From an uncultured Nitrospirales bacterium (GTDB taxonomy: Bacteria; Hydrogenedentota; Hydrogenedentia; Hydrogenedentales; SCBR16-9), in contig CAZIDP010000020.1 of NCBI GenBank assembly GCA_964537975.1, positions 783-64,782 of the forward strand: DNA of 64,000 bases. The letters are read 5' to 3'. The notes beneath the pieces are model-generated. The model did no database searches. It saw only the letters and a list, made by a program, of their open reading frames with translations, and was not told the DNA's origin. Made by a program: the position numbers and the translations under genes. Shown here in pieces: positions 24,669-62,000 of the stretch (the stretch's first letter is position 1; every line of letters starts with the position of its first letter).

Positions 24669-27161
24669 TTACATTTCTTTAGATAAGGCAATTCGCATTA
24701 CATCACCAAGTTCTTGCAAAGTATAGGGTTTTTGAATAAAACCACACAATCCTTTTCCAACGAAACGTTGTGAAACTTCTTGCTGGTTGTATCCACTGGA
24801 CATGACACAACGCACACCTGGATTTATACGTCGCATCTCACGATAAGCTTCTGCACCATCCATATGGGGCATGGTAAGGTCCAGGACGACACAATCGATA
24901 GCGTTCTGATGTTCTTTATAAAGTGATACAGCTTCCCGGCCATCTTCTGCGGTAATGACATTATATCCAATTCGCTCCAGCATTCGCTTGGCTAAATGTA
25001 GTATAACCTCTTCATCGTCTGCCAGCAGTACAGTTCCTGTTCCCAGATGCTGTTGTTTGGTCTTGTCGTTTTCGTTGGGAGCAGAAACCGAACCAGTGAA
25101 ATGGGCAGGAAACAGAATTTTAAATGTACTGCCTTGCCCTTCCTCAGAATATACTTTAAGCGCACCACGATGTCCACGAACGATACCCATAACAGCAGCC
25201 AAGCCCAACCCTCTACCAGTAAATTTGGTTGTGAAGAATGGGTCAAATATGTTAGATAGTGTTTCGGCATTCATGCCACACCCCGTATCGGCTACTTCCA
25301 GGAAGACAAATTTACCTTCAGGTAAGCCCTCATCCAGAAACACATCACTCAGATAACTTCGATCACACTCCATCACACCGGTACTGACAGAAATAACGCC
25401 ACTTTTATCAGCGATGGCATCTGACGCATTAATAACCAGGTTCATGACAACTTGTCGAATCTGGGTTACATCTCCTTCAATCACAGCGACGTCTCGAGTT
25501 AATTGTAAGCGCAACACGGCTTTTTTCGTAATACTGACTTGCAGCATCTGTGTCATGTCTTCTATGACATCATTTAAATTGATAGCGGAAATAACAAATT
25601 TACCTTTACCAGAATATGCCAGCATTTGTCGGCACAGATCGGCCGCACGACGCGATGCCTTTTCTATTTCACTGAGGTAGACCTGTGCAGGCGATACTGG
25701 CGACAAGTCACTTAACGCCAGGTCCGCATTCCCTAAAATAGCCAGCAATATATTATTAAAATCATGCGCAATACCTCCTGCCAATACACCCAGACTTTCC
25801 AGTTTTTGAACTTGCTGCATGTGTTGTTCCAAGCGGTGCCGTTCTTCATCTGCCCATTTGCGGTTGGTAATATCATGGACAATACTCAGGCATTGTTTAA
25901 CCCTACCGGATGGATGGCGCAGAAATACGATGTCACGACTATAAAACCAGGCACAAGCTTCTTCATCCTTTTTCATAATCCGATACTCAATGGAAAGCAC
26001 TTGTCTGTCTTGTGCCTTTAACAAGTGCAACCAATGTGTATGGATTCGTTCAATGTCTTCTGGATGTATAAAACGTTGAATTGCAGACTGCGTAAGGTCT
26101 GCGATATTCGTCAGATTCCATTTCTGTACTTCATCTGGAATTTTATTGATATAAATAACCTGCTTAACATCAAGATCATACACGGCAACATAATCAGGAG
26201 TAGTCTGTAAGACTGCATCGATAAAACGTTCCCGCTGCTGCATGTGTGTGGTTAATTTTTCACGTGCTTCCAATTCTTTTTGCAGAGCAGTCGTTTTAAC
26301 GTTAACCTGATGACGTAACGACATTGTCCACCCGATAAAAAGAATAACGATTAAAACAATCCCTCCCATAATCCATAGAAAATAGTTCCAGTAAGGCCAA
26401 ACTGTTTGCTGGCGATGAAACATTGTAAACCAGTTTTCACGAATTCGGTCGTAGGTACCACTTAATCTGATAGCATTTAAACCTTCATTAATGATATTTA
26501 ATGTTTCGACATCCTCTTTAGCTACCGATATGCAATAATCCAGCGGCATCAATGTGAATTCTAGTTCTCGCAAGTTGTCTATGTGATTGGTGCGAATCTC
26601 ATGCCAGGCAAGTATTCTAAGTGCCAGGACAGCATCATACTCTCCTTGGGATAACAGGCGAATGGCCATGCCTTGATTACCTACACGAATTATTTCACCT
26701 GCCAAGCGTGTCGTCTGCAGATATTCATCCATAACATCATGTTCTTGGACGATAATGCTTTTCCCACGTAAATCCTCAATGTTTTGGTCAGGCGAATCAA
26801 TTCTTACAAAAGCACTGTGGGTAGCAACGATGGTGGGTAAACTAAAATCAAACTCCTGTTCACGGTCAGCAGTGCGGAACATCCCCAAGATACCGTCAAT
26901 ATCTCCACTTCGCAAGGCATCTGGTACATCAGTCCAAGAGCGCAATTTTATCTCAAATTGTTGTCCAGTTTCGGCTTGAATAGCTTCAATCAAGTCAACG
27001 AGAAATCCTGCCGGACTCCCTGTGTCATCCAGGTAGGTATATGGAAAATAATGGGCATCACCGTGTAATAGAAGCACTCTTTGGTTTTCAGCTTGAGCGC
27101 ATACTGGTAATAAGAAACCAACTACACATAAAGACAAAAACAGCGCTCGAATCATGGGCAA
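24669..27161 (-). CDS. Hybrid sensor histidine kinase (periplasmic amino-acid-binding-type domain, TM, PAS, HisKA, HATPase, REC)
   Basis: SBP family-3-like N-terminus; AGGIAHDFNN H-box; NLVINASDA; DTGCGM; FDPFFTTK; GRGLGL; receiver LADDE...DLTMP...KP. Confidence 0.93.
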   Translation of the reverse strand: MPMIRALFLSLCVVGFLLPVCAQAENQRVLLLHGDAHYFPYTYLDDTGSPAGFLVDLIEAIQAETGQQFEIKLRSWTDVPDALRSGDIDGILGMFRTADREQEFDFSLPTIVATHSAFVRIDSPDQNIEDLRGKSIIVQEHDVMDEYLQTTRLAGEIIRVGNQGMAIRLLSQGEYDAVLALRILAWHEIRTNHIDNLRELEFTLMPLDYCISVAKEDVETLNIINEGLNAIRLSGTYDRIRENWFTMFHRQQTVWPYWNYFLWIMGGIVLIVILFIGWTMSLRHQVNVKTTALQKELEAREKLTTHMQQRERFIDAVLQTTPDYVAVYDLDVKQVIYINKIPDEVQKWNLTNIADLTQSAIQRFIHPEDIERIHTHWLHLLKAQDRQVLSIEYRIMKKDEEACAWFYSRDIVFLRHPSGRVKQCLSIVHDITNRKWADEERHRLEQHMQQVQKLESLGVLAGGIAHDFNNILLAILGNADLALSDLSPVSPAQVYLSEIEKASRRAADLCRQMLAYSGKGKFVISAINLNDVIEDMTQMLQVSITKKAVLRLQLTRDVAVIEGDVTQIRQVVMNLVINASDAIADKSGVISVSTGVMECDRSYLSDVFLDEGLPEGKFVFLEVADTGCGMNAETLSNIFDPFFTTKFTGRGLGLAAVMGIVRGHRGALKVYSEEGQGSTFKILFPAHFTGSVSAPNENDKTKQQHLGTGTVLLADDEEVILHLAKRMLERIGYNVITAEDGREAVSLYKEHQNAIDCVVLDLTMPHMDGAEAYREMRRINPGVRCVMSSGYNQQEVSQRFVGKGLCGFIQKPYTLQELGDVMRIALSKEM

Positions 27162-27298: not shown

Positions 27299-27985
27299 TC
27301 AACCTGGCGACATATCCAGCAATCCGGCATCTTTGAGGTGCCTGACATCACCCCAGGTATCGAGGCACCAACCAACAGGATCGTTTTCATGGCTGAAAAT
27401 ACTAATAGAAGTGTTACGAATCGCAAATGTGCGCGTGCATTCCATTTCAAGACCGATAACTTGCCGGAAAAAGAAATTCAACACGCCTCCATGTGTAACA
27501 ACGGCAATATTCTGACCAGCATGTTCGACAGACTTCGTGTTAAAAAAGTCCATGAAACGTTGGCGAAATGCTGCACGCGTTTCACCTTCGGGAACAGTGT
27601 AGTGTTCTTTGTCCCAATTTTCCGGTGCTTCCGGATATTGTGCTATGACTTCATTCCAGCTTAAACCTTCCGCAACACCAAAATGACGTTCACGCAAACG
27701 TGAATCGGTAATGACCTGCATTTTTGTACTCTTTGCCAAATACCTGGCGGTATCCCTGGCCCGCCCGAGATCGCTGGCATATAGATGATCGAACGCATTT
27801 TCAGAGAATCGGTCGGCCATAGCGCGGCACTGTGCATGACCGTGTTCAGACAATACACCATCTTGCTGCCCTTGAATACGCAGTTGGACATTGCTGACGG
27901 TTTCTCCATGGCGTATCAGGTAAAACCAAGTTTTTGTATGTTGTGCGTCACAATGTGTATTTGTCGGAGCTTTTACATCGTTCAT
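27299..27985 (-). CDS. Histidine phosphatase (phosphoglycerate mutase) family protein
   Basis: IRHGET, ASDLGRARDTA, LRERHFGVAEG, VTHGG. Confidence 0.9.
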   Translation of the reverse strand: MNDVKAPTNTHCDAQHTKTWFYLIRHGETVSNVQLRIQGQQDGVLSEHGHAQCRAMADRFSENAFDHLYASDLGRARDTARYLAKSTKMQVITDSRLRERHFGVAEGLSWNEVIAQYPEAPENWDKEHYTVPEGETRAAFRQRFMDFFNTKSVEHAGQNIAVVTHGGVLNFFFRQVIGLEMECTRTFAIRNTSISIFSHENDPVGWCLDTWGDVRHLKDAGLLDMSPG

Positions 27986-28185
27986 GAGAAATCACTTACT
28001 TTATAATGGGTTTATTTCGGTTGGATAACTACCAGAAATTGCATGCTGAAAATGATTACCTGAATCGAATAATTCAGGTAAACTTGCAACAACGAAATCT
28101 GAGAATTTTGGATACTGTTCAGCGTGTTCTAATTGCTATTTCAGATGCGAGAAGGTTTATCGGTGTATGATATAAAAAAACGTAC

Positions 28186-29367
28186 TCATGAACCAAACCA
28201 GCCACGGATATTCTCAAAGAATGGCTTTGGCTGTGTACGCACCAGCACCGATTGACCGGGGGTGAATTTGTCGGGTGGCAGATCACCGACCAGCACCGGT
28301 CGACCCCAGGGAGTAGCTGCTATATTCTGGATCAGTTGCAGCGGATATTCTTCCATACGAGGGCTGATGTTTAATATTCGCGCCAAGGTAATATCTTCCG
28401 GATTGGACCTGGTGAATATTTCTACTTGTTCTCCAACCTCAAGCTCCAGGGTCCTGTCTTCTCTGACAAAAGCAACAACCCGTGCCCCTTCAGGGTCCGC
28501 GATGTGGAGAATAGGTACACCAGCCAGCACAGTAGAACCTGGTCGATAATCAATCCGCGCCACACTGCCTTTTATAGGTGAGCGTAAAACAAGATATTGA
28601 AGCTTCTCGCTAATCTGATTTACCAGATTTTCCTGCATCTGAATACCCAACGCCAAGGACTCCAAAGCAGGAGAGAATCCAACCTCGGTTTCCCCTGTTT
28701 CGTATTCATCCAAACGTTTACGGATACTGTCTATACGCGTATTCGCCTCAAGCATAGCAGTCTCATGTTCACGAATCTGAGTCCGCAATGATTCTACTGT
28801 CAGCTGCGTTTGTTCAAGTGTATATGGGTCCAGTATGCCGTGATTTACCTGTTCTTTCTCCTGCTGCATTTGGATTTCCAGGCGAGTAAGGTCGACTTTG
28901 TCCCGCTCCTGTTGCACCACGCGGTCCAGATAAGCGAGACGCGCCCCTTCCAAATCCATCAGAAAGCGTCGACGCTCAGTTTCCTGGTCCAGTCCAAAGA
29001 TTCGTGCATCTGTACGTGCTGCTTCCAACTCTGCCCGCAACCGCTGCAAGGCGACCTCTGATGTCAGCAGTTCTGCCCGCACCAGGGTATCATCCATGAG
29101 AGCCAAAACTTGACCCTCTTCTACTTTCTCGAAGAGGTCGATACTCACACCGCGCACAATGCCATCATTCAATGGGGCAACGCCAACTTCGTACACATCA
29201 ACAATACCTTCGATTAGACCGACCTGTTCGTATTGTCGGCCCAGTAAAACAATAACTACCGCTGTGGTCAGCAGCCAGACGGTCAAGGGTAATGCCCGGA
29301 GTCGCCACAGACGAAAGCGCCGGCGGAACGGCATATGAATCACCTTGTCGTGTACTGACTCCCCCAT
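28186..29367 (-). CDS. HlyD/membrane-fusion (periplasmic adaptor) family protein
   Basis: N-terminal TM; biotinyl-lipoyl halves (VAPLNDGIV...EGQVLA and LRSPIKGSV...GSTVLAGVPIL) flanking a long coiled coil; beta-barrel. Confidence 0.85.
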   Translation of the reverse strand: MGESVHDKVIHMPFRRRFRLWRLRALPLTVWLLTTAVVIVLLGRQYEQVGLIEGIVDVYEVGVAPLNDGIVRGVSIDLFEKVEEGQVLALMDDTLVRAELLTSEVALQRLRAELEAARTDARIFGLDQETERRRFLMDLEGARLAYLDRVVQQERDKVDLTRLEIQMQQEKEQVNHGILDPYTLEQTQLTVESLRTQIREHETAMLEANTRIDSIRKRLDEYETGETEVGFSPALESLALGIQMQENLVNQISEKLQYLVLRSPIKGSVARIDYRPGSTVLAGVPILHIADPEGARVVAFVREDRTLELEVGEQVEIFTRSNPEDITLARILNISPRMEEYPLQLIQNIAATPWGRPVLVGDLPPDKFTPGQSVLVRTQPKPFFENIRGWFGS

Positions 29368-30074
29368 TAAACTTCAGCCTCCTCTTCTTGTAGTACAAAG
29401 GTGACATTGGAAACACCCACCAGACCACGTAACTCTTCGACCAACAACTCGGCCTGGCCTGGATCGCGCATTACCAGTCGATAGGCCACCTCACCTTCAC
29501 CTTCTTCATGAAATCTTTGCGAAACAAGTTGGGTACTGCGGCAATGTCGTCGTAATATGTCTTGCCAGGATTCCCGACGCAACTTTTTCATTTCCCAGTG
29601 AAACCGAACAAATCCATCGCCGGTTCGTCTGCTGCCAAATTGTGACCAGTGCAAATACAACACTAACGTGCAGAAAACCAGTGTACCGATGATTGCAATA
29701 GCGTAATTCCGCGTTCCGCAGGCCATGCTGTTTATGAGCGCAAAAAAGATGAATGCGGTATCTCTGGTATCCTTGAGGATGTTTCGAAAACGTATAACAC
29801 TCAAGGCACCAACCAGCCCGAAGGCAATGGCAATGTTGTTGCCAATGACCATGAGTCCAATAGCAAGGATTATGGTCAATAAAATGATAGATTGTACAAA
29901 AGAGCGCGAGTAAGAAAGTCCTTGATGGGTATAGATGTACACCCAGGCTGCGAGTTGACTCAATACAAATGCAAGAAGAAGACTCAGGAGAACTTCTTCA
30001 AAGGTGATGTGGTCCGGGCGCACCATACCAAATCGCAAACCGTCAAATGATACATTCATAAGGTCGATATCCAT
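29367..30074 (-). CDS. DUF4956 membrane protein
   Basis: GLSYSRSFVQS, AFGLVGALSVIRFRNILKDTRD signature; 4 TM helices plus an ACT-like C-terminus; TAATG stop/start overlap with the next gene. Confidence 0.88.
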   Translation of the reverse strand: MDIDLMNVSFDGLRFGMVRPDHITFEEVLLSLLLAFVLSQLAAWVYIYTHQGLSYSRSFVQSIILLTIILAIGLMVIGNNIAIAFGLVGALSVIRFRNILKDTRDTAFIFFALINSMACGTRNYAIAIIGTLVFCTLVLYLHWSQFGSRRTGDGFVRFHWEMKKLRRESWQDILRRHCRSTQLVSQRFHEEGEGEVAYRLVMRDPGQAELLVEELRGLVGVSNVTFVLQEEEAEV

Positions 30075-30844
30075 TTCGGACTACGCAAATCAATCCCCTC
30101 ATTTTTTAGCATTCTAACACACTCCACGTATTTGGCGCAGGAAGAACGGTTTAATTCAAAACGTTGAATCAAACGTCGCACCCATTGAGGTAACGCATTG
30201 TTGAACTTGATTTCAAACATGACATCAAAGGCATCGACATCTTTATATCGTCTAGGGTTATAATTCCAGATATCTTCTGAATAAGCTGCAACGGGATAAG
30301 TAGAAAGACAACGGTCCAAAGAAATGCGTACTGGTTCTTCCAAGGCACTCATATAGGCTTCACGCATATAGCGAACCATACAGCGCGGAATTGCACCTAT
30401 CGATTCCTGATATGTTCGGAAATTATACAATTTTTGCAATTCACCGGGGGCATTACTCAGTAAAGCTGCTTCACAATACCCTTCTCTGCACAGTATGCGA
30501 GGCAAGTATGATCTTTTAATACCTACCCGTTCTTTCTTTATGACCTTATCAATGCGGCGTTTTAGTTCCAGGAAAACAGGTACATCGGGCCCTTCGCCAT
30601 AACTACGCACCCGTAACTTGAATCGGTTCTTCTCGCCAAATTCCGAGCTTTCAGACAAAATTAAATCCGGGCTATCGAGATAGAGACTCAATATGGGATA
30701 GGAACACCCTGTTCGGACATGGGGATCAGAGGAAACATAGGGCATCATGGTTGTTACCAAAGCCTGTGCTTCCAATTCATGAAGATAGTATTTGGCCTCA
30801 ATGCGTTGAAAAACTTCTCCACGATTTGCGGCACCAAAAAGCAT
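30056..30844 (-). CDS. VTC-domain (polyphosphate polymerase-like, CYTH/TTM fold) protein
   Basis: RIEAKYY (ExK), SLYLDSPDL, RFKLRVRSYG, FLELKRR, YMREAY, RISLDR, FEIKF, SCAKY. Confidence 0.88.
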   Translation of the reverse strand: MLFGAANRGEVFQRIEAKYYLHELEAQALVTTMMPYVSSDPHVRTGCSYPILSLYLDSPDLILSESSEFGEKNRFKLRVRSYGEGPDVPVFLELKRRIDKVIKKERVGIKRSYLPRILCREGYCEAALLSNAPGELQKLYNFRTYQESIGAIPRCMVRYMREAYMSALEEPVRISLDRCLSTYPVAAYSEDIWNYNPRRYKDVDAFDVMFEIKFNNALPQWVRRLIQRFELNRSSCAKYVECVRMLKNEGIDLRSPKWISTL

Positions 30845-30905: not shown

Positions 30906-30960
30906 TAACATTATAATAACAAAAAATCCAAACTGTTAAAATCTTAACCTAATTATAACG
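30906..30960 (-). promoter_or_regulatory. Two pairs of 11-bp-period direct repeats (PhoB/OmpR-like boxes) upstream of the VTC operon
   Basis: Minus strand CGTTA-N6-GGTTA (30960-30945) and TGTTA-N6-TGTTA (30921-30906); the AT-rich context lowers significance. Confidence 0.35.
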
Positions 30961-34012: not shown

Positions 34013-34076
34013 CATAGCCGCTGCAATCTATTTCCACTGATTATTTTGCGTGCGTTTAACAGGGAAGAACAAGAAC

Positions 34077-37000
34077 ATGAATTTACATCTGTGTAAAAAA
34101 ATATTAAAAACCTGGTTGTGTTGTTGTTGCTTGATATTCCTGGCAGGCTGTAACAATGAAATGGTCCAAAATGATATTGCATCATCACTTGCTCATGACT
34201 ACTCACATGACCGTGAAAATATCGACGCTATGCGCTGGTTTACCGCCTATGACTTTGCGGACCGCATTCAGGACGCTGATCGCATCAATGCACGGCACGC
34301 AGTCGCGCAAACAAACTCTGCGAACAATACACCTCGCAGTGCCATTTTCCAACACCCCGACCTGCCAGATGAGCCGATTTCAACACTTCAGTTTCAACAG
34401 ATTGAATTACCTGTTCCGGAACATGGTGAACACCTGTTGTTTCATGGCTATATCGCAATCAGTGATCACATTAACCTGGCTGAAATGCAACCATTTGACG
34501 GTTGCCGATTCATTATCACCTTAAATGAGGAAATCATTTTCGATGAGGTGCATACAGATCAAGTCTGGCGTGAGTGGTATTTTGAACTGGATGACTACGC
34601 TGGACAAGCCATTGACATCCGTTTTGCTGTTGACCCCCGAGAGAACAATGTAGCGGATTGGGCATTATGGGGTAGACCGCGTATATTGATTGAAGGAAGG
34701 GAGGCCTCAATGCGTTCTGGGCCGCAAATCGAGCTGTTAAAAACAGATAATCTGATGACCACTCCCATGCAAGAACGGGTTCTGGAACAACACCTGATGC
34801 CGTATGGCAGCCTGACCGTAGCGTTGATGGATCGTCATCTGGACATGCCTGCCTTGTTGCGTGATTCAGCAGATGCGGCAGGCCCAGCACCGGTTCCCCT
34901 GCCACCACGGCTGGTTGTTGGAGAAGGCCCCTCACCTCAAAATCACACGCTTATTCGTGTATTGAATCACCACCATATCGCCGAGTATCAATTTCTGGCT
35001 TACTCACCAGAGGTGCGTGGTGGTGTTCAGGTACATGCAATTTCATTACCAAATAGAGTGCAGGGAATATTAGCAGCACCACTTCTGGATGCTGACACCC
35101 GGGAAATACGCATCTTTGATACCAAGGGTATCCCAATTCGCCATTTTACACCAGAAGATATGGTGTTGCCTCCGTATGAAATCGTGGTGGGTCAATTCCT
35201 GGATGATGTATCTGAAGACATCATTGTGCTGGCCTCCCGGCATGTGCCACCAAATGCAGTCCATACGCAACTTCACTTTTACACCTCAGAGGGTGTGTTG
35301 CTCAAGACTGAAGCGGTAAACATTCCCGAACCAACACCTACATCCACACAGTTGCGCCTTGGAAAAAGCTCAGGTGAAGTAAATGATACCTACCAAGTAC
35401 AATTTCTATCGGACCTCCCATCCGTTCCAAGTCTGGAGGACCCGTATTATGTTGGAGAACGCTGGCATGACAACGCTTTCGATAAAGTTTCTCCTTGGGT
35501 AACCAAAGAAGACGAGGCTCGTTCCCTGGTGACAGTCTGGAGCTCGGCACCATCTGGTAATGATTCCATACTGGATTTGGGGGCACGTGAAAATCGTTTT
35601 TATTATCAGTACCATCATTGGGAGCAGCATCCGGAAGAGATTCCTGAAGATGGTGAACACATCAAGTATTCCTTGTTTGCACATATCCGTACGGATATTT
35701 CGTCGCCGGGCTGGAGTACCGCAGGATTGGAACGTGATGTGGATGAAAGCACGACCTGGGTTAATGATGATTTCCTGGCTGCTGCCAGGGAGCGCGTTGG
35801 CCGATACCACGCAGACCCGCCAACGTTCTGGGAACTGTGTTTTACCCATCGGCAAGGCTACGGCGGGTTTGATCCCTGGGCTGCATATGTAGACCCTGAA
35901 ACCGGTATGCACCGATATAGCATGTTGACCAGGAATAACAATCCGGCAACTTACCATGAATTTGATTTCTCCCATTTTCATGCAAGTACCTACGCTTTTG
36001 AAATTCCAGAACTGGAAAATCTTTATATATTGCCACTTCGTGCGTATTTAAGGGAGCTGGCGAATGTTTTTAAAGAAAACCCCGAGCACATCGTCGTGGT
36101 GGAACCCAATCATGAGCATGAAATTGCCGTGGACGCGGAAGGTACCAACGGCGACTACAATCCAAGAATGATCAGCGGATTTTTTGATTACCTTCGGCAC
36201 CAATATGGTCTAGAAGCAGATCAATTAGCAGAAAGACTGGGATATACATCGGGTGATTTTTTTGACGCACCTCGAAACTGGGAGCGTGGTGATTGGGATG
36301 CATACAATGAACAGAACCTGTTTTACAATGAATGGATAGCCTATCAGCGGTATGTTGTCAATCGTCGTCTGGCACAGACATTTCGTGAGGCACTATTGGC
36401 AGGCTTCCCGCCTGAGTTGATCAAGTCACACCAGATTCCTGACACCTATGCGATAGGGAATCTGGATGCATTCAGCACGGTCATCTCGCGATATACACCG
36501 ATTGACTATGCCAAAAATGTCGGCGTTGGATATGGATTCACCCGTTATTCTGTCTGGTATGAAGACCGCCACAACGTCATGCAGGGTGCACATTCCTCAG
36601 GATTTGATCAGGTTGTGCTGGGTGAATACCAGGCCCTACATCCCGATAATGATGTAGCCTACAACCAGTTACGGTATATTTTTGATCATGGTGGATACGC
36701 TGTACATTGCATGACCTGGCCAGAGAGTTATGACAATGGATTCAATGCGTCTATGGAACATGCACTTCGGCGTTTGGTGGTGGAGGACCCCAGAAATCCC
36801 AATCAGACCGGTGGTGTTGGCCAAATCAAGCCTTTTATATCTGATACAGACCGTTACAACATCGCCCAGATAGGAACCGGACATCATCACACGGGATTGT
36901 TGAAGAGCTTAAATGCTGACGGCACCTGGGAAGGTTCTGTATACGTGGTTCCGTTTCATGCCCACGTTGCCATCTCAACCATTGCAATGCATGAAACCGA

Positions 37001-37379
37001 TCCGAATGCTTATATGAGTGACGTACTGCCAACACTGGATTCTGGCTGCCAACTGGATATTCAGTTTATTGCCGGTGCTGGAGCAGGCGCTTCAGCCTTT
37101 CTGGAAATCCTGCGGGAAGGCGTTGTCCTGCCAGGATTAAGTATGGTAATCCCCTTACCGGTGGAGCAACAACATCATCGCGTGTATTTTCGTACACAAG
37201 TCCCAGTCGATGACATTACGGTTCGATTGCGTTTTGATGGTGACCAGATTGATTTTGATGACACCAGTTTTGAAGTATATTTACAGGAGGAGCAGACTGT
37301 AAAACTGGCACTGAATCGACTGGAAGGCATTCGTCATCAGGGAGGTGTTACCTTTGATATCTTGCCGGAAACAGAATAA
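34077..37379 (+). CDS. Large putative lipoprotein with a probable clan-A-like glycoside hydrolase domain
   Basis: Lipobox LAGC; beta-sandwich (DWALWGRPRI); FG-GAP/VCBS-like FLAYSPEVRGGVQV; TIM-barrel-like region with EPNHEHE and LGEY. Confidence 0.7.
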   Translation: MNLHLCKKILKTWLCCCCLIFLAGCNNEMVQNDIASSLAHDYSHDRENIDAMRWFTAYDFADRIQDADRINARHAVAQTNSANNTPRSAIFQHPDLPDEPISTLQFQQIELPVPEHGEHLLFHGYIAISDHINLAEMQPFDGCRFIITLNEEIIFDEVHTDQVWREWYFELDDYAGQAIDIRFAVDPRENNVADWALWGRPRILIEGREASMRSGPQIELLKTDNLMTTPMQERVLEQHLMPYGSLTVALMDRHLDMPALLRDSADAAGPAPVPLPPRLVVGEGPSPQNHTLIRVLNHHHIAEYQFLAYSPEVRGGVQVHAISLPNRVQGILAAPLLDADTREIRIFDTKGIPIRHFTPEDMVLPPYEIVVGQFLDDVSEDIIVLASRHVPPNAVHTQLHFYTSEGVLLKTEAVNIPEPTPTSTQLRLGKSSGEVNDTYQVQFLSDLPSVPSLEDPYYVGERWHDNAFDKVSPWVTKEDEARSLVTVWSSAPSGNDSILDLGARENRFYYQYHHWEQHPEEIPEDGEHIKYSLFAHIRTDISSPGWSTAGLERDVDESTTWVNDDFLAAARERVGRYHADPPTFWELCFTHRQGYGGFDPWAAYVDPETGMHRYSMLTRNNNPATYHEFDFSHFHASTYAFEIPELENLYILPLRAYLRELANVFKENPEHIVVVEPNHEHEIAVDAEGTNGDYNPRMISGFFDYLRHQYGLEADQLAERLGYTSGDFFDAPRNWERGDWDAYNEQNLFYNEWIAYQRYVVNRRLAQTFREALLAGFPPELIKSHQIPDTYAIGNLDAFSTVISRYTPIDYAKNVGVGYGFTRYSVWYEDRHNVMQGAHSSGFDQVVLGEYQALHPDNDVAYNQLRYIFDHGGYAVHCMTWPESYDNGFNASMEHALRRLVVEDPRNPNQTGGVGQIKPFISDTDRYNIAQIGTGHHHTGLLKSLNADGTWEGSVYVVPFHAHVAISTIAMHETDPNAYMSDVLPTLDSGCQLDIQFIAGAGAGASAFLEILREGVVLPGLSMVIPLPVEQQHHRVYFRTQVPVDDITVRLRFDGDQIDFDDTSFEVYLQEEQTVKLALNRLEGIRHQGGVTFDILPETE

Positions 37380-54007: not shown

Positions 54008-55309
54008 TCATTCTTCCCGTAAAATTACTGCCGGGTCCAACTGCGCTGCTTTTCTGGCAGGAATCCAACCGGCAACAACTGCCAGCAAGGGTGTTCCCAG
54101 GATTACCAGCAGCAACATCACGGGGTGGATGAGCTGAACAAACTCTGTGCTCCATAGAGCAATACCCTCCCAGGATGCGCCAGCCAGTAATCCGGGGATG
54201 CTCCCCAGAACGGCGCCCAGGCCACCCATCAGCGCCGCTTTGATTAAAAAAATGCTCATGATGGTGCTTTCCCGCACCCCCACCGTTCTCATGATGGCTA
54301 TCTCGCCTCTTCGTTCTTTCACATTGCTGGATATCAGGAAAAATATCCAGATGGCAGCTCCGGTGAGTACAACCGGGATGAGAAACCGAACCAGTTGTTG
54401 CCGTTGCACACCCAAATGGGCACGGTATGCAATTTCAGAATCGATGGCTGTTTCACGCATTTCTGCGGCTCTGGCCCGGGCTTCAAATCGCGCACGCAAG
54501 ATGGTGCCAAACTCCATGACCTGTATATCCGGCAGGATTTGCTGCACCTCAGATTCCACCATTCCGAACGCTTCGAAATTACAGACACATTCCAATGCCA
54601 GGATGCCGTTGATCTTGCCTTCGAGACCAAACCATTGCTGTACCTTTTCCAGATCACACCATAGCGTGATATCGTCGTCATTGCCTCTGCGACTATGAAC
54701 GCGATGTACCGTGAATTCTTCCCCTTGAAATGTTATTTGATCACCAGCATTGATACCGGTGATACGGGCAATGTCGTAGCCGGCTTCGATGGTGCCCTGT
54801 GGAAGCGTTTCACGAATCGGATTGCGGTACCTGCCTTCATCATCAAGAAACTGGGGTTTTTCGAAATTGGGAACCTGGCCCATGATGCCGCACAAGATGA
54901 TTTCCTGTTCCTTCTCTTCCCAGGTAGTACGTTTTTGTAAAACGGGAAACAGGTGATTCAAATTTTTAATGCCCCCGGTTGACAACGCGAACACATACTC
55001 CAGAGGCATATACGTATTGGGACTCCCGTCAATTCGCAGCGAGTCTATGGATTGGTCTTCATGCAATATCAACACGTTGTAGCCCATGTCTCGCATCATC
55101 AGACGGTAGTCATCTTCCAGTTTGGCCATATCTGCACGGGTTTCGTGTTCTTTTTGGTTGATTATCTGTTCTGTCTTGATCTCGTGGGCGGCTAATAAGG
55201 TAACTGCCCCCATGACAAGTCCCAGGGCAACCGATATACAGAGCAATCCGATTGCGAAATGGGTTTTGTTATAAAATATCTCGCGCCAGATAATATTCCA
55301 TTTACTCAT
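54008..55309 (-). CDS. ABC transporter permease (FtsX/MacB/LolC-E type)
   Basis: One TM, large periplasmic domain, three TM; NVKERRGEIAIMRTVG; PARKAAQLDPAVILREE. Confidence 0.92.
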   Translation of the reverse strand: MSKWNIIWREIFYNKTHFAIGLLCISVALGLVMGAVTLLAAHEIKTEQIINQKEHETRADMAKLEDDYRLMMRDMGYNVLILHEDQSIDSLRIDGSPNTYMPLEYVFALSTGGIKNLNHLFPVLQKRTTWEEKEQEIILCGIMGQVPNFEKPQFLDDEGRYRNPIRETLPQGTIEAGYDIARITGINAGDQITFQGEEFTVHRVHSRRGNDDDITLWCDLEKVQQWFGLEGKINGILALECVCNFEAFGMVESEVQQILPDIQVMEFGTILRARFEARARAAEMRETAIDSEIAYRAHLGVQRQQLVRFLIPVVLTGAAIWIFFLISSNVKERRGEIAIMRTVGVRESTIMSIFLIKAALMGGLGAVLGSIPGLLAGASWEGIALWSTEFVQLIHPVMLLLVILGTPLLAVVAGWIPARKAAQLDPAVILREE

Positions 55310-55373: not shown

Positions 55374-58300
55374 TTAATCCACAGCGGCGGCAATCTCGAC
55401 AACATTCGTAAAAAGCTCAATGCCATTGATAAAGGGGTCGCGTTCCGCCTCTTCAGATTTCAGGAACTCAATGGTCATAGTCATATCACTTAGCACGGTA
55501 AATTCTTCATATGTGCCACGCAGATGTCCCCCGGTTTTTTCCATTATGTCATAGTTGCTTACGATTTCTTCTCCATTAACCAATACATCAAAAACACGCT
55601 CTCCGACTTCTACATCTTCTTCCAGCTCGGCAAAATGAAACCGTAGTGTATAGGTGGTATCCAGCAGATCATACAGCGTGATGCTGTTGTCTTCTTCTGT
55701 CATTTCTTTGCCGGAAGCAGCAACCCAGTCAATGCTGTCAGCAATGGTATCGGCGTTTTTCTGAATGGCGGATGGATGTCTGCGCATCGTTCCTTCTTCA
55801 TCGAACCATACCCGGCCCGAATCATGGTCTACGCGGCGGCCTGGGGCGCCCAGGTTAATGCCATAGCCTTCCGGGTTTGGAGGTGAAGCATCATAGCGGG
55901 TCCAATTTTCAATGTTAGTATCGCCAGGCATATGAATCATAGCCAGAGAGGTCTGGTTCTGATAACTGCAGGTACATGATCGGGTGTAATCCAGTGCATT
56001 GACCAGGCCTTCTGCCGCGATCATGTTGGCGGTACAACCGGAGCGAAATCCACTGAATGTACCGGTGCCGGTGTCATGTTCCAGATCAAAATAACCTGCG
56101 TAACCCGTGCGATACAGCAGCAAATATTTACTCGCGTTTAATGTATTGCAACCATACGTCCTGCTGTAAGACCAGCCACTACTTTCACCTGTCAGTGGTT
56201 GCACACGCAACCAGTCTTCACCGGTCAACAGGGAACGGGCTGTCCCGGGGCGACCGGGGATCAGCATGTCCCCAATGATTGCAGCAGGCACTGTAAAGCT
56301 GCCACTGCGTTCCCACAACATATCGCCCGTACTGCCACGCCGTGCCAGCATCTCCCGCGGTTCATCTTCAATCGTCCGGCGCAGGTCCTGGCTCCCGCTT
56401 TCGATTAAAATGTCATGCGCTTTGCTGTACAACAGAAATGTCCCGAAAACATTGGCATCGTTTTCCCACAGGACATCACCGGTACCCAGTTCCAGCGCAA
56501 ATATCCGGGAAACATCCTCCGGTACCTCTCCCCTGCGTGCCAGATGTTCAATGGCATTTTCTGATAAACCATCGATCAAAAACAGGGTATTTCCCGAACT
56601 GATTATGGCATTGTGCCGGAAACCGACCTTCGCTTCCCGCGTCCACAAGACATCACCACTGTAACGGTTCATTACCACAACAATGCCACTCGATGTTCCA
56701 CTGTAACTTTCTAACCAACCGAGTTCCTGGTCTTCAAAGATGTGTGGTTCCGTGGTTGATATGAGGAAATCTCCCGAAACGCTGATATGACCCCAATCGG
56801 GCGCTTCATCGCCGTATAACGCTTGCACTGAGCGCCCAGGCAGGGCGAACTGGTTGATTACTTCTCCCGTAGCCGCGTTCAGCCGGTGAATTTTGCTGTC
56901 ATAACGTAAATACACACTGTCTGGAAGCGTTACGAAAGGGCTGCCGATGTAGGTTGCACCCGGTATGTTGGTCATGTAGACCTGTTCCCCATCAGTCCAA
57001 CGTTCTTCCAGTTCCATATTGGTGAATGGGTGGCCAATCCCGGGATACGGCATGTCCCACAGTTGCCGCCCAGTATAAACACAGCGCGCAGCGATGTTCT
57101 CAACACCCAGATATACCTGCCGTCCCCCGGCAATCTGAGGTCGTGGCCCTCCCGCATGCCGCGGTAAAATATTGTGGTTGTTGGGGCCGCCAAACCACAG
57201 CAAGCCCAGCGGTAAGCGCGCCAATTGTTCTTCAGAAACAAGTGTATTGGCCGAGTCATGGAGCTGATGGGTCCATTGCCCTGCACCTGTCAAAGGACCA
57301 CCGCGTTGCGCGAATACAGCATGATCGATAGCTTCCACATGTACTTTATCGACATTGGCCGCCCGCGCGGCTTCGGTCACGGCTTCTACTGAATCAGAAG
57401 GCACACTAAAATATGCCACGCCACCATAGGGCCGCAGTAAGTTTAGTATGCTGGCCCAGTTTGCATTGTCGTGTAAAATACCTGCCTGTGTTGCGTCTTC
57501 ACTTGCCACCAGGCTGAACAAATAGGGCTGTACCGAAAAGGTCGCAGGATTGTCCTCAATAACCGCGACACGCTTTCCATATGAACCAGTCGATACCAGT
57601 TCATCGCGTAATGTACGTGCTACCAGTTCGTCATTTTCAACAACAACAATATGCAGGTCACTCCGTATCATTAACTCTTTGAGGAGGTCACCTGAGCCAT
57701 GCCCCAATAACAGCGCGTAGCCCTCCGTCTCTCCAAGCTCATCCAGCAAGGTCTGTGCGGTCTGAGCCCAGGCGGCAGTGCGTAACATCAAGCGTGCGGG
57801 CCGGTATGCGTGGCGTATTGGCGTTGTTTCCTCTGGGCCAAAGCAATATAAAGTGCCCTGCGTTGTCGTGACAAATAGACGCCCATGGGCGGCAATCAGG
57901 TTAAATAAATCACCATCCAATTGCTCCGCAATTAATTCATAGCATTGCGTCAGCACATCATTTTCGTTCAGCCCCATTCCATCGGCATGAACCGCATAGC
58001 CCCCGGCAGGCTTGGCCCTGAATGCTGCTTCTTTCACTTTTCCTGTATGCCGGTCTAAAAATGCGGGCGGGGTCCTGCCACCCGCCACCACCAGGGTATC
58101 TTCATTGGCCGCCAGATACCCCTGTGGAGCCAGCCCACCATATCCATAGGCGCCACCATGCGGGAGTTCGACGTAGTCCGAGCTGGTCGTGTCATTTACC
58201 CAGACCACCTCACCAGTCACCGCATTCAACGCGTAAATGAATATGCCATGCATAGGCCAGAAGCCTGCGGCGAAGTAAATGGTATCGTCCCATATTACCG

Positions 58301-59036
58301 GGCCGCCTCGTGCTGCCCAGAAATTGATGATTCGTTCATTACCAAGCAGCCGATGATCATTGGGGCCTCCTTGGAACTTCCATGCCAGCGTACCATCTTC
58401 CGCGTGAACACAATATAGATGGCCATCATCCGAGGTAAAATATACATAATCTTTCCAGGCGACCGGGGCGAGCCGAACTGGCGCATTGGCATAAAATCGC
58501 CATATCTCAGCGCCATCGGAAATAGCATAGGCAGTAACACTATCGGTTGCATTAGACGGCACAAAAATGCGATTGCCCTTGACCACAGGCGAATACGAGA
58601 GGTCAAAATCCAGTTTGTTACGATGGTCCCACTGATGCGGCCAGGCACGCTTAGGCTCTGGCAATTCACGTACCCATTGCAGATGCAGGTCAGAGGCAAA
58701 TCGCAATGGTGTGGCTGCGCTTCTGCCCGCGTCATATTGCCACATGGGCCAATCTAAAAAGCCCGCCTTTTCCAACGCGGTATATGCTTCCTCTCCCCCG
58801 ATACTACCCAGCTCCCGGGCGACCGCTTCCCGCACAATCCGGTTTTCATGATTGAGCAAAGACGTTGTAAGATCAACAAAGACTTCCTGTACCTGTATCG
58901 CAGCATTTGTTTGCCCTCCTGGGTCTTCTCCAAGCGCATTCAACTGTAAAACAATGCTGAAAACCAACAACACCGCACCAGCACTTACCAATCCAGAACC
59001 AAATAATGACGAGAAAGACCGATTCCAAAAACGCAT
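55374..59036 (-). CDS. Exported multidomain protein: HEAT repeat, PQQ-type beta-propeller, methyltransferase-like domain, second propeller, malectin-like domain
   Basis: Signal peptide; IVREAVARELG; DWPMWQYDAGRS; WRFYANAPVRLAP; ALLLGHGSGDL...LRPYGG; C-terminal LRFHFAELE...GERVFDV. Confidence 0.85.
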   Translation of the reverse strand: MRFWNRSFSSLFGSGLVSAGAVLLVFSIVLQLNALGEDPGGQTNAAIQVQEVFVDLTTSLLNHENRIVREAVARELGSIGGEEAYTALEKAGFLDWPMWQYDAGRSAATPLRFASDLHLQWVRELPEPKRAWPHQWDHRNKLDFDLSYSPVVKGNRIFVPSNATDSVTAYAISDGAEIWRFYANAPVRLAPVAWKDYVYFTSDDGHLYCVHAEDGTLAWKFQGGPNDHRLLGNERIINFWAARGGPVIWDDTIYFAAGFWPMHGIFIYALNAVTGEVVWVNDTTSSDYVELPHGGAYGYGGLAPQGYLAANEDTLVVAGGRTPPAFLDRHTGKVKEAAFRAKPAGGYAVHADGMGLNENDVLTQCYELIAEQLDGDLFNLIAAHGRLFVTTTQGTLYCFGPEETTPIRHAYRPARLMLRTAAWAQTAQTLLDELGETEGYALLLGHGSGDLLKELMIRSDLHIVVVENDELVARTLRDELVSTGSYGKRVAVIEDNPATFSVQPYLFSLVASEDATQAGILHDNANWASILNLLRPYGGVAYFSVPSDSVEAVTEAARAANVDKVHVEAIDHAVFAQRGGPLTGAGQWTHQLHDSANTLVSEEQLARLPLGLLWFGGPNNHNILPRHAGGPRPQIAGGRQVYLGVENIAARCVYTGRQLWDMPYPGIGHPFTNMELEERWTDGEQVYMTNIPGATYIGSPFVTLPDSVYLRYDSKIHRLNAATGEVINQFALPGRSVQALYGDEAPDWGHISVSGDFLISTTEPHIFEDQELGWLESYSGTSSGIVVVMNRYSGDVLWTREAKVGFRHNAIISSGNTLFLIDGLSENAIEHLARRGEVPEDVSRIFALELGTGDVLWENDANVFGTFLLYSKAHDILIESGSQDLRRTIEDEPREMLARRGSTGDMLWERSGSFTVPAAIIGDMLIPGRPGTARSLLTGEDWLRVQPLTGESSGWSYSRTYGCNTLNASKYLLLYRTGYAGYFDLEHDTGTGTFSGFRSGCTANMIAAEGLVNALDYTRSCTCSYQNQTSLAMIHMPGDTNIENWTRYDASPPNPEGYGINLGAPGRRVDHDSGRVWFDEEGTMRRHPSAIQKNADTIADSIDWVAASGKEMTEEDNSITLYDLLDTTYTLRFHFAELEEDVEVGERVFDVLVNGEEIVSNYDIMEKTGGHLRGTYEEFTVLSDMTMTIEFLKSEEAERDPFINGIELFTNVVEIAAAVD

Positions 59037-59048
59037 ATATAAATATCC

Positions 59049-62000
59049 TTATTCAAATTTTTTAGCAACTGCAATATCACCGCTATTGGCAATAAGTTCA
59101 ATGCCGCTGATTATGGGATAAAGCTCCGCGTTGGAAGCCTTGCGTAATGCAACGGTCATGGTCGTTCCGCTATCCACATAAAATTCTTTTACAACAGGCA
59201 AGAATGCACTGCCCGTTTCTGCATAAATATCAAAATCCTGATAAACCACTTCATCATTAACAACAATGTCGAATACGCGTTGTCCAGAAGTAACGCTGGT
59301 GTCATGCTCTGCAAAATGCAATCGTACTGTGTAATTTGTGGTGAGCAGATCGTACAGCGTCAGGGAGTCCTGGTCGACCTCCGTTATTTCGATTGCTGAC
59401 GCAGCAACCCAGTCAATGCTTCCTTCACTTTCCAGGATGGCAGAAGCATGACGCCGGTGATTGCCTGGTAAATCGTGCCAAATCCGCCCGGAGGTGTGAT
59501 CTATGCGGCGACCCGGAGCACCAAAATTAATCCCATACCCCAAGGGGTCTGGTAGCGCGCCATCATATAAAGCCCAGGATTCAATACCGGGCATGTCGGG
59601 CATGTGAATCAGGGCCAGTGAAGTCTGGTGCTGATAACTGCACGTACAGGTCCTGGTGTAGTCAGGCGCATTCAATACCCCATCAGCCACCACCATATTA
59701 TTGGTGCATCCTGAGCGAAATCCACCAAAGAACCCGGTACCCGTGTCATGTTCGAGATCAAAATAGGCAGCGGCACCGGAACGGAAAGTGATGAGGTGCT
59801 CACTCAAGTTGTGACTGTTGCAACCATACCGACGATTGTATGCCCAGCTTGCACTTTCTCCCGTGAGTTCTTGCGTGCGCATTTTCCGCTCACCGCTCAG
59901 TAGATTGAGCGCATACCCAATTCCAGACCTGGCCGCGGGTGCCATGTAGATTTCATCCTTACGTATGGCCAATGGTCCCCAATACGAAGTAAGCGCGGGA
60001 TTCTCCCACAACGGCTCACCTGTATTCCCATTAAATGCCGAGATGCGGTCTCCTGGCTCATCCTGTAACATACGCAAACCACCGGGCCGGCCACCTTGAA
60101 TCAGGATGTCATATTCGGATGAATACCCCAGCCAGGTACCAAAAACACCCGTCGGATTTGTCCATAGTGTGTCACCGGTTAGCAGGTCCAGTGCCAGCAG
60201 CAGGGCATTTCCAGGTTCTTCACCGCGCCGCTGCAGGTGTTCCAGAACACTATCAGAGAGTCGATCAATCAGGTATAGACAATTGGCACCAGACACGATC
60301 GCATTGTGACGGAAGCCAGTTTGCGCTTCACGTATCCACAATACTTCGCCACTATGCCGGTCCAGAGCAATCAATCGGCGACTGGAGGTGCCTTCCCAAC
60401 CCCGGCCTTTGATGTCGGCCATCGTTTCAAAAACAGTAGTATAGTTACCTTCGCCTTCGAAGACCTGCGGCTCGACGGTGGTTATGATTACATCACCCTG
60501 AATGCTGAGATGTCCCCAGTCCGGCTTACCTTCCAACTCAGGCGCGACCGGAAGCTGAAATTCCGCCATAACCTCACCGGTTTCCGTTGACAGCCGGTAG
60601 ATACGAGTCATATACCGCACATATATTCCATCTGGTAAGGAGACAAATGGGCTTCCCAATTGATTGGCACCAATACCATCCGCATTGTGCATGAATACTT
60701 CCTGGCCACTCTCAAACTGCTCCTCCAGTTCCAGGTCCGTAAAAGGATGCCCCAGCCCGGGGAAGGTCTGCTGCCACATTTCACGCCCGGTATAAACGCA
60801 GCGGGCACTGACGGTGTCGTTGCCAGGCAGAATGACCTTGCCTGCAATGACCTGTGGAATGGGGCCGTGGCCATGACGCGGTAGAATATCGCTGTTGCAC
60901 GGTCCACCAAACCAGAGAATACCCAGAGGTGTTTTGGTTCGGTTATCCGGTGAAAAATTGGTATTGGAAGCATCGGCATACTGGTGTGTCCAGTGCCCGG
61001 CACCCGTAAGCGGGCCCTCCCGTTGCGCAAATATATACTCGTGACGTAGTTCAACGCGTACCCGGTCTACATCGGCAGCCCTGGCCGCATCCGCAAGCTG
61101 CGTGAGTTTGTCATCATCAGCACCCAGATAAGCGATGCCCCCATAGGGCCGCAGTCGCTCCAGAATATAGGCCAGTGCAGATGCTTCGGCGCTGATGCCA
61201 GCGGCAGTACTGTCTTCACTCACAAGCAGGCTGAACAGATAGGGCTGTACCTTGAAAGCGGCTGGCTCGTCTTCAATGACAGCTACACGCCAACCATACA
61301 CACCCGCATCCGCAAGCTCATCACGCAAGGCGCGTACCCTGGTTGCGTCCGGTTCCACAACCACAATGTGGAGTTCGCTGCGCAAGAGCAATTCTATGAG
61401 CAGATCGCCTGAACCTGCCCCGAGCATCAATGCGTACCCTTCAATTTCGCCCAGTTCATCCACCAGGCTTTGCGCGGTTTCTGCCCATTGGGCAGTCCTG
61501 GGTGACAGCCGGGTTGGAGACAAATCATGTCGTACAGGTGTGTCGCTGTCAGGCGCAAAACAATACAGACGCCCCGAAGTGGTGGTGACATACAAACGAT
61601 CATGGGCAACCAGCGCTTCGAAGACCTCCCCGTCGATTTGATGCTTCTGCTTTTCTACCTGTTGCGACAACATCGTGTTTTCTGCCCGGCCTATGCCGTC
61701 GATATTTACGGCATATCCTCCCTGGGGCTTGGCCCGTAACGACATTTCCAGGACTTCTCCGGTATGCCGGTCCAGGGTGGCCGGAGGTGTTCTGCCGCCC
61801 GCAACGATCAACACTTCATCTGAAGCCGCTATATATCCTTGCGGAGCGATACTGCCGACGCCTGTTGCGCCATCGTGTGGCAGTTGCACATAGGCTGAGC
61901 TTGTGGTGTCATTGACCCACACGACATCCCCGGTTTCCGCATTCAGGGCATAGATAAAAACACCATGCATCGGCCATATGCCGGCAGCAAAATAGACGGT

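Follow-up and report, generated by a model that had tools for sequence, protein, structure and literature searches.

A VTC-DUF4956-adaptor operon conserved across bacterial phyla, a candidate module for synthesis-coupled polyphosphate export

Introduction

In recent reviews, polyphosphate polymerisation is assigned to VTC in eukaryotes and to PPK in prokaryotes (PMC12526157, PMC10657179). In bacteria, VTC, DUF4956 and CotH genes are associated, at the level of annotation, in the NELoc-2 locus of Clostridium perfringens (PMC2879425), where the gene annotated as "tubulin/FtsZ" is probably the DUF4956 gene, and the same three genes are accessory genes of the Gram-positive Pel loci of Streptococcus, Clostridium and Bifidobacterium (bioRxiv 10.1101/768473). 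In Streptococcus intermedius, deletion of the gene for DUF4956 (MgtC plus ACT) or of that for CotH altered Pel levels and aggregation (PMC12345266). The published Gram-positive VTC-DUF4956 clusters contain no gene for a periplasmic adaptor, and no description of a VTC-DUF4956 trio that includes such an adaptor was found in the literature. Here we describe a trio of this kind in a 64,000-nucleotide stretch (hereafter the window) of contig CAZIDP010000020.1, which belongs to assembly GCA_964537975.1 of an uncultured bacterium placed in Hydrogenedentota. The VTC-DUF4956(-CotH) module is known at the level of annotation, while the version with an adaptor appears to be new.

The trio is an overlapping, tightly coupled operon of genes for a VTC-domain protein, a DUF4956 membrane protein and a periplasmic adaptor, and it is conserved across phyla. 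We propose that it may form a dedicated envelope-spanning module for synthesis-coupled export of polyphosphate, a reading to which we give a probability of roughly 0.45.

The gene trio and its conservation

The earlier note on this DNA had listed three adjacent genes, for a VTC-domain protein, a DUF4956 protein and a membrane-fusion adaptor; the open reading frames (ORFs) and Pfam searches confirm all three at the coordinates that it gave:

30844-30056, minus strand: VTC-domain protein, 262 aa, Pfam VTC
30074-29367, minus strand: DUF4956 MgtC-like inner-membrane protein, 235 aa from the longest ORF, Pfam DUF4956
29367-28186, minus strand: EmrA/MacA/HlyD-type periplasmic adaptor, 393 aa, Pfam HlyD_3 / HlyD_D23

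Both junctions overlap. The DUF4956 stop codon and the adaptor start codon have one base in common (TAATG), as the note had read them, while the 19-nt overlap that it gave for VTC and DUF4956 holds for the longest DUF4956 ORF only. Because 30 of 37 DUF4956 homologues begin at the residue that corresponds to Met6 of this ORF, the true start is probably the ATG at 30059, 15 nt inside the longest ORF, and the likelier junction is then a 4-nt ATGA overlap with the VTC stop codon. The two genes overlap whichever DUF4956 start is used, and all three are taken to be coupled in translation.

Conservation was surveyed in one genome per GTDB species. The genome scan used an alignment of 14 VTC sequences, a 28-sequence alignment having no stretch that was conserved enough, and matched 473 loci, of which the best 80 were retrieved and searched with hidden Markov models (HMMs) built for the survey. 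The trio is collinear in 46 of the 65 informative loci, i.e., those with at least 2.2 kb downstream of VTC, while DUF4956 is found without the adaptor in four and the adaptor without DUF4956 in one. The order VTC-DUF4956-adaptor is also kept in Pfam-annotated contigs of homologues with VTC identities of 33-55% and wholly different flanks, where the junctions overlap by 1-8 nt. The closest relatives of the window trio are found in metagenome-assembled genomes (MAGs) of Candidatus Hydrogenedentota, with 55% VTC identity. Overall, the trio is present in at least five phyla, the MAG labels being Hydrogenedentota, Planctomycetota, Verrucomicrobiota, Balneolales, Fibrobacteraceae and Anaerolineales, although the Anaerolineales label may reflect binning. 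Because the trio recurs in 46 of 65 loci, in several phyla and amid unrelated flanks, its arrangement is far beyond chance.

Whether the adaptor is conserved beside the VTC-DUF4956 pair had been named in the note as a point on which its proposal could fail. The adaptor follows the pair in these 46 of 65 diderm-lineage loci and is missing from all five monoderm VTC-DUF4956 loci, which come from cultured Bacillota and Actinomycetota (Planococcus, Paenibacillus, Acetoanaerobium, Enterococcus and Nonomuraea) and instead have CotH, a Cthe_2159 beta-helix protein, a phospholipase D (PLD) enzyme or a two-component system. An adaptor in diderms and none in monoderms is the pattern expected if the job of the adaptor is to cross the periplasm.

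The VTC-domain protein

The first protein of the trio matches Pfam VTC (PF09359) with an E-value of 2.6e-27 and 96 bits against a cut-off of 23. It consists of the VTC domain alone, without a signal peptide, a transmembrane (TM) segment or an SPX domain, and is predicted to be cytoplasmic. A profile of 28 VTC homologues matched yeast Vtc4 at an E-value of 7.5e-19, compared with 8.6e-8 for Vtc2 and 6.7e-7 for Vtc3, and by this measure the profile is nearer to the catalytic Vtc4 than to the inactive Vtc2 and Vtc3. Invariant in the 28 homologues are R14, E16, K18, D57, K76, R78, R80, E93, K95, K104, R106, R161, R173, D177, E211, K213 and K238. Among these residues, K18, R78, R80, K95, E211 and K238 align to K200, R264, R266, K281, E426 and K458 of Vtc4 (3g3q), whose numbering was checked by counting along the aligned sequence and which we take to be the residues essential for polyphosphate synthesis (Hothorn 2009). 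Because invariant residues fall on these positions, the Vtc4-like tunnel machinery is intact: every mappable Vtc4 tunnel residue is kept, and residues that bind ATP/Mn2+ and the growing polyphosphate chain in yeast Vtc4 are, as judged from the alignment, retained here.

The bacterial protein and the yeast VTC complex (3g3q, 7ytj, 8i6v) therefore share a homologous catalytic domain in which the tunnel residues are kept, but the bacterial VTC is without SPX and without a fused TM domain, and the combination of SPX with a Vtc1-type (DUF202) channel that marks the yeast complex is not found here.

Other arrangements of bacterial VTC genes were also encountered. In one locus (L083, 8955-12337), VTC lies between genes for a TerC-family membrane protein and a PQQ_2 beta-propeller, which, together with the grouped locus L034 (both are from Pedosphaera / Verrucomicrobiota MAGs), makes a second context for bacterial VTC. 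In another (L068), a HAD hydrolase gene comes after VTC, and neither DUF4956 nor the adaptor is present. In a third (L070, 2587-3528), the VTC gene is broken into two adjacent ORFs, which may be due to a frameshift, a pseudogene or an assembly error.

The DUF4956 membrane protein

The second protein matches Pfam DUF4956 (PF16316; E-value 1.5e-13, 51.3 bits against a gathering score of 30.6) and is the most conserved member of the trio, with about 1,500 matches at an E-value of at most 0.001 among 5,002 scored candidates and 58-78% identity among the top 120 of 1,492 matches. Its AlphaFold (AF2) model, with a mean confidence (pLDDT) of 85, has helices at residues 25-49, 56-77, 81-95, 103-120 and 124-143, which make up a region of four to five TM helices, followed at 148-234 by a C-terminal b-a-b-b-a-b domain (a, alpha-helix; b, beta-strand) that is ACT/ferredoxin-like. 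The third helix ends in an R95-F-R97 (RFR) motif, which does not vary even when Bacillota homologues are compared; the K101-D-T-R104-D motif that comes after it is invariant among diderm homologues, and R95-D105 form a basic loop. The positive-inside rule predicts that both the loop and the ACT-like domain face the cytoplasm.

In Foldseek searches with the model, the C-terminal domain alone was matched, to ACT/NikR domains and to the C-domains of MgtC (7qa5 and 2lqj), with a TM-score, normalised to target length, of 0.64 and 20% identity for 7qa5. The score of the window protein against Pfam MgtC (PF02308; E-value 0.13, 13.1 bits) is under the gathering score of 31.4. One DUF4956 homologue carries a Pfam MgtC match, homologue P0107 matches MgtC at an E-value of 7.5e-6 (26.7 bits), and many homologues are named YhiD by the Joint Genome Institute (JGI). 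From these comparisons, the relation of DUF4956 to the MgtC family appears to be one of remote homology or likeness, not of membership. DUF4956 and MgtC / SapB / YhiD are alike in having a multi-helix TM region and then a cytoplasmic ACT-like domain, but only DUF4956 has the invariant RFR / KDTRD loop. To our knowledge, MgtC is never encoded with a triphosphate tunnel metalloenzyme (TTM) or with an adaptor.

According to the earlier note, VTC and DUF4956 together rebuild a split Vtc4-like synthase and translocase. As a matter of homology, this was not borne out. The DUF4956 profile, run against the PDB with the yeast VTC complexes in the library, returned at E-values up to 10 only a de novo designed protein, and Foldseek with the model returned no match to a VTC TM region. 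Homology of DUF4956 to the Vtc1/Vtc4 channel was therefore rejected; the protein has no detectable similarity in sequence or fold to the Vtc1-type 3-TM domain of the yeast complex, and functional analogy is the most that can be proposed. A natural VTC-DUF4956 fusion was likewise considered and dropped, since the 394-aa homologue P0058 carries merely an unannotated N-terminal extension, which is no evidence of fusion. Two tandem DUF4956 ORFs, which may be a duplication or a split gene, are found between VTC and the adaptor in one complete chromosome (OW818685.1; L010, 10744-12002), where a giant CotH gene comes next.

The periplasmic adaptor

The third protein matches Pfam HlyD_3 (E-value 1.8e-9) and HlyD_D23 (6.9e-8) above their gathering cut-offs and is under the cut-off of all NCBIfam adaptor models (RND_mfp, EmrA, type_I_hlyD, DevB and MacA), with scores of 62.8 against 94.9 for RND_mfp, 48.3 against 390.8 for EmrA and 43.5 against 208.7 for type_I_hlyD. 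In a profile search of the PDB, EmrA (4tko) was matched at an E-value of 4.5e-17, and MacA, LipC and HlyD-type adaptors were matched as well. In the AF2 model (pLDDT 79), a basic cytoplasmic N-tail and a single TM anchor are combined with a split lipoyl domain, a beta-barrel and an alpha-hairpin of about 120 Å with about 80 residues in each arm, while a membrane-proximal domain is absent; Foldseek placed EmrA (1.5e-19) and EmrAB-TolC (8zal) on top and found MacA too. A hairpin of this length suffices to reach a TolC-like outer-membrane channel.

The adaptor is fast-evolving, and word-based searching gave nine matches only. Among 53 adaptors from trio loci, the N-tail is one of the best-conserved parts, above the hairpin, with I10, P13, R22 and P27 each at least 83% conserved; in the hairpin, R134 is 96% conserved. 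This unusual conservation across trio-linked adaptors points to a specific contact that the N-tail may make on the cytoplasmic or membrane side.

A metagenome search that started from the adaptor gave seven strong matches, four of which follow VTC-DUF4956 and two of which are cut at a contig end. The remaining one (L095, 2319-6666; 31% identity) is the nearest adaptor relative outside VTC loci and sits in an operon for a major facilitator superfamily (MFS) transporter, an adaptor and an outer-membrane efflux protein (OEP), i.e., an EmrAB-TolC-like pump, which suggests that VTC-linked adaptors descend from EmrA-type pump adaptors. Given this MFS-adaptor-OEP operon, DUF4956 would therefore hold the position of the inner-membrane transporter. 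The trio and the EmrAB-TolC, MacAB-TolC and HlyBD-TolC systems are alike in that the EmrA/MacA adaptor architecture is the best match in both sequence and fold; they differ in that the position of the MFS, ATP-binding cassette (ABC) or resistance-nodulation-division (RND) component is held here by DUF4956 and a soluble TTM enzyme. No classical ABC, RND or MFS transporter was found in the window operon or in the Pfam-annotated trio loci, the MFS gene being at L095 only.

Genes linked to the trio in relatives

Since CotH proteins diverge strongly and have several domains, an HMM from one seed gave two matches only, and the HMM used for the survey was built from Pfam-delimited CotH domains. CotH genes adjoin 14 of the 46 trios. 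Their products are often giant, with LTD domains, and are secreted or lipoproteins: the CotH neighbours bear their own Sec or lipoprotein signals, such as the lipobox of the CotH protein at locus L008. That no CotH gene adjoins the trio here, as the earlier note had pointed out, is correct and extends to the whole window (Pfam on all ORFs of at least 250 aa; CotH HMM), but given the neighbours in relatives this absence is local.

The VTC-then-DUF4956 core, with overlapping or closely spaced genes, is shared with the Gram-positive cotH/VTC/DUF4956 clusters. In the latter, including one on a Planococcus plasmid, CotH is frequently adjacent and there is no adaptor, whereas the window trio has an adaptor and no CotH. 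On that plasmid (Planococcus maritimus, NZ_CP059541.1; L110, 5389-12069), the genes are VTC, DUF4956, CotH, a hypothetical protein of about 690 aa, a HEAT-repeat protein and a glycosyltransferase. This series is that of C. perfringens NELoc-2, which suggests a mobile Gram-positive version of the module.

Genes for TolC-like OEPs, confirmed by Pfam, are near eight of the 46 trios, for instance at L008, where the order is VTC-DUF4956-adaptor-CotH-OEP, and at L087. In six loci (L051, L023, L029, L033, L045 and L066), an OEP-adaptor2-OEP cassette is directly upstream of the trio, so that these loci hold two adaptors and two TolC-like proteins. At L051 (4210-9361), it consists of an OEP gene on the minus strand, a gene for a short adaptor (305 aa) and an OEP gene on the plus strand, followed by VTC-DUF4956-adaptor(-CotH). 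No classical transporter is among the HMM-detected or Pfam-checked genes between the OEP cassette and the trio.

In one diderm locus (L091, 7088-11353), VTC-DUF4956 is followed by a Beta_helix protein and then by Porin_O_P of the phosphate-selective porin family (E-value 4.2e-5, 23.4 bits against a cut-off of 20.9). This porin hints that a phosphate species may cross the outer membrane; no further phosphate-porin neighbours of this kind were found among the loci examined.

Proposed mechanism and alternatives

In the mechanism that we propose, the cytoplasmic VTC enzyme would polymerise phosphate from nucleoside triphosphate (NTP) at the membrane and feed the chain to a DUF4956 oligomer, which would take the place of the MFS, ABC or RND transporter of tripartite pumps. 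The adaptor and an unlinked TolC-type channel would then bring the polyanion through the periplasm, either to the surface of the cell or into the medium. There, it may serve surface or matrix chemistry and, in many relatives, would act with the secreted CotH-type kinases encoded next door, which, we infer, have no obvious phosphoryl donor outside the cell. The proposed logic would be analogous to that of the yeast VTC complex, in which a tunnel enzyme sits on a membrane partner and synthesis is coupled to translocation, but the destination there is the vacuole lumen, while here it would be the periplasm or the exterior, by way of the adaptor. In the alginate system Alg8-Alg44-AlgE, polymerisation at the cytoplasmic face is combined with an inner-membrane partner that has a periplasmic domain like that of membrane-fusion proteins and with an outer-membrane channel. 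The concept is alike, but none of the parts is related: the alginate synthase is an integral-membrane glycosyltransferase, and what it makes is a polysaccharide.

A more far-reaching form of this proposal, which we hold to be doubtful, is that the trio represents a new class of secretion machine: a polymer synthase, i.e., a Vtc4-like TTM on an MgtC-like DUF4956 channel, would be the inner-membrane engine, and an EmrA-derived adaptor and TolC would extrude inorganic polyphosphate onto the cell surface as a matrix polyanion and/or as phosphoryl donor of secreted CotH kinases.

Several points weigh against polyphosphate export. Where Vtc4 has Thr, the bacterial proteins keep a Glu (E16) that belongs to the canonical ExExK motif of TTM enzymes. 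Such enzymes are also triphosphatases, cyclases and other phosphohydrolases, and sequence alone cannot tell a polymerase from a hydrolase. No report on the enzymology of any bacterial VTC-domain protein was found in the searchable literature. Similarity of DUF4956 to the Vtc1/Vtc4 channel is undetectable by the searches described above. We know of no MgtC-family protein that conducts a polymer, and MgtC itself works as a regulator. Both DUF4956 and the adaptor are missing from 14 of the 65 VTC loci, among which the two with Pfam-identified flanks (L083 and L068) have TerC/PQQ or HAD neighbours. The window contains no TolC-like gene by HMM or Pfam and, as stated above, no CotH gene; TolC genes are often unlinked. 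The survey consists of the 80 best of the 473 loci and largely of MAG contigs with truncated flanks. Deletion of the VTC gene in S. intermedius gave no clear phenotype (PMC12345266).

Alternatively, the trio may be a regulatory or homeostatic device. VTC would then hydrolyse triphosphate or short polyphosphate, or make a small phospho-signal, which DUF4956 would sense through its ACT-like domain so as to modulate the homeostasis of phosphate, Mg2+ or energy in the manner of Salmonella MgtC, and the adaptor only would tether or stabilise the complex. DUF4956 is MgtC-like in both its TM region and its C-domain, small ligands are the usual partners of ACT-like domains and part of the hydrolase-type ExExK motif survives in E16; moreover, the authors of the S. 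intermedius study frame these genes as phosphate metabolism (PMC12345266). Such a device, however, would not account for the presence of an EmrA-type adaptor, with its hairpin of about 120 Å, in diderms (46 of 65 loci) and in none of the five monoderm loci, for the adjacent TolC-like OEPs and secreted CotH proteins or for the invariance of all the Vtc4 chain-binding residues, among them the K458 equivalent, and we regard it as unlikely. We are similarly sceptical of export, or synthesis, of a different cargo, which could be a phosphorylated glycan or matrix polymer, a nucleotide or phosphoryl donor for CotH, or a protein exported in the manner of a type I secretion system (T1SS), with VTC as the NTPase motor. 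In various lineages, the module is beside glycosyltransferases, beta-helix/carbohydrate-binding proteins and Pel loci, but in most trio loci no glycan gene is conserved. The PDB matches include HlyD/LipC-type T1SS adaptors, yet the CotH neighbours have Sec or lipoprotein signals of their own and therefore need no T1SS. CotH would also need an extracellular phosphoryl donor, which speaks for such a cargo; against it, the enzyme to which the VTC protein is most closely related makes polyphosphate.

It could finally be argued that the adaptor of an unrelated efflux pump merely chances to follow VTC-DUF4956 here, in a window that contains neither a classical transporter nor a TolC gene to pair with it. 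Against this stand the 1-nt TAATG overlap of DUF4956 and the adaptor, the recurrence of the order and the overlaps in distant relatives with other flanks and of the trio in 46 of 65 loci, and the result of the adaptor-first search, in which four of the five strong matches with upstream sequence are directly after VTC-DUF4956. Coincidental adjacency is thus effectively refuted by the neighbourhood survey.

Surroundings of the trio in the window

Two further features flank the trio:

30910-30939, minus strand: sigma-70-like promoter candidate, TTAACA-18 nt-TATAAT, a consensus match alone (11/12)
28056-28081, minus strand: hairpin with an 11-bp stem, about 105 nt 3' of the adaptor stop codon

The promoter candidate is about 66 nt 5' of the VTC start, in an AT-rich divergent intergenic region in which the count of sigma-70-like sites is not above that of shuffled controls. 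The hairpin (28081-28056) is weak, with three G-C pairs only and a poor T-tail, and is a possible end of the operon before the His_Phos_1 gene. This gene, which encodes a histidine phosphatase (27299-27985), and one for a hybrid histidine kinase with a periplasmic SBP_bac_3 domain (24669-27161) are 3' of the trio on the same, minus strand. They were rejected as members of the operon, being conserved beside the trio in no relative and separated from it by a 200-nt gap that contains the hairpin. The trio is otherwise surrounded chiefly by genes for glycoside hydrolases, sulfatases, DUF1559/N_methyl proteins and housekeeping functions, of which the WbsX-like and glycoside-hydrolase neighbours were ruled out as functional partners, as they are unconserved in relatives.

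Elsewhere in the window, two tandem genes on the minus strand (55374-63524) encode giant proteins of 1,220 and 1,491 aa with PQQ/BamB-like beta-propellers and C-terminal malectin domains, and a gene for an FtsX-like permease (54008-55309) adjoins them. A 1,109-aa ORF without a Pfam match (34050-37379, plus strand) is directly after WbsX-like and apiosidase-like genes.

Significance

Interest in the module is above average, since bacterial polyphosphate synthesis of the VTC type, and the export of a polyanion, can be tested on it directly. To the best of our knowledge, the movement of long polyanions across membranes is understood in the yeast vacuole only, and the trio would offer a simple, genetically tractable system for synthesis-coupled polyphosphate translocation. 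It is also a candidate for the origin of polyphosphate outside the cell and for the supply of phosphoryl groups to secreted CotH kinases, and it may open a first way to the function of DUF4956 and of the enigmatic MgtC fold. Should the VTC enzyme be a triphosphatase only, it would still have to be explained why a tripartite-pump adaptor is used here with no classical transporter. If polyphosphate export is true, an MgtC-like fold would gain a transport function, and "eukaryote-type" polyphosphate synthesis would be widespread in bacteria.

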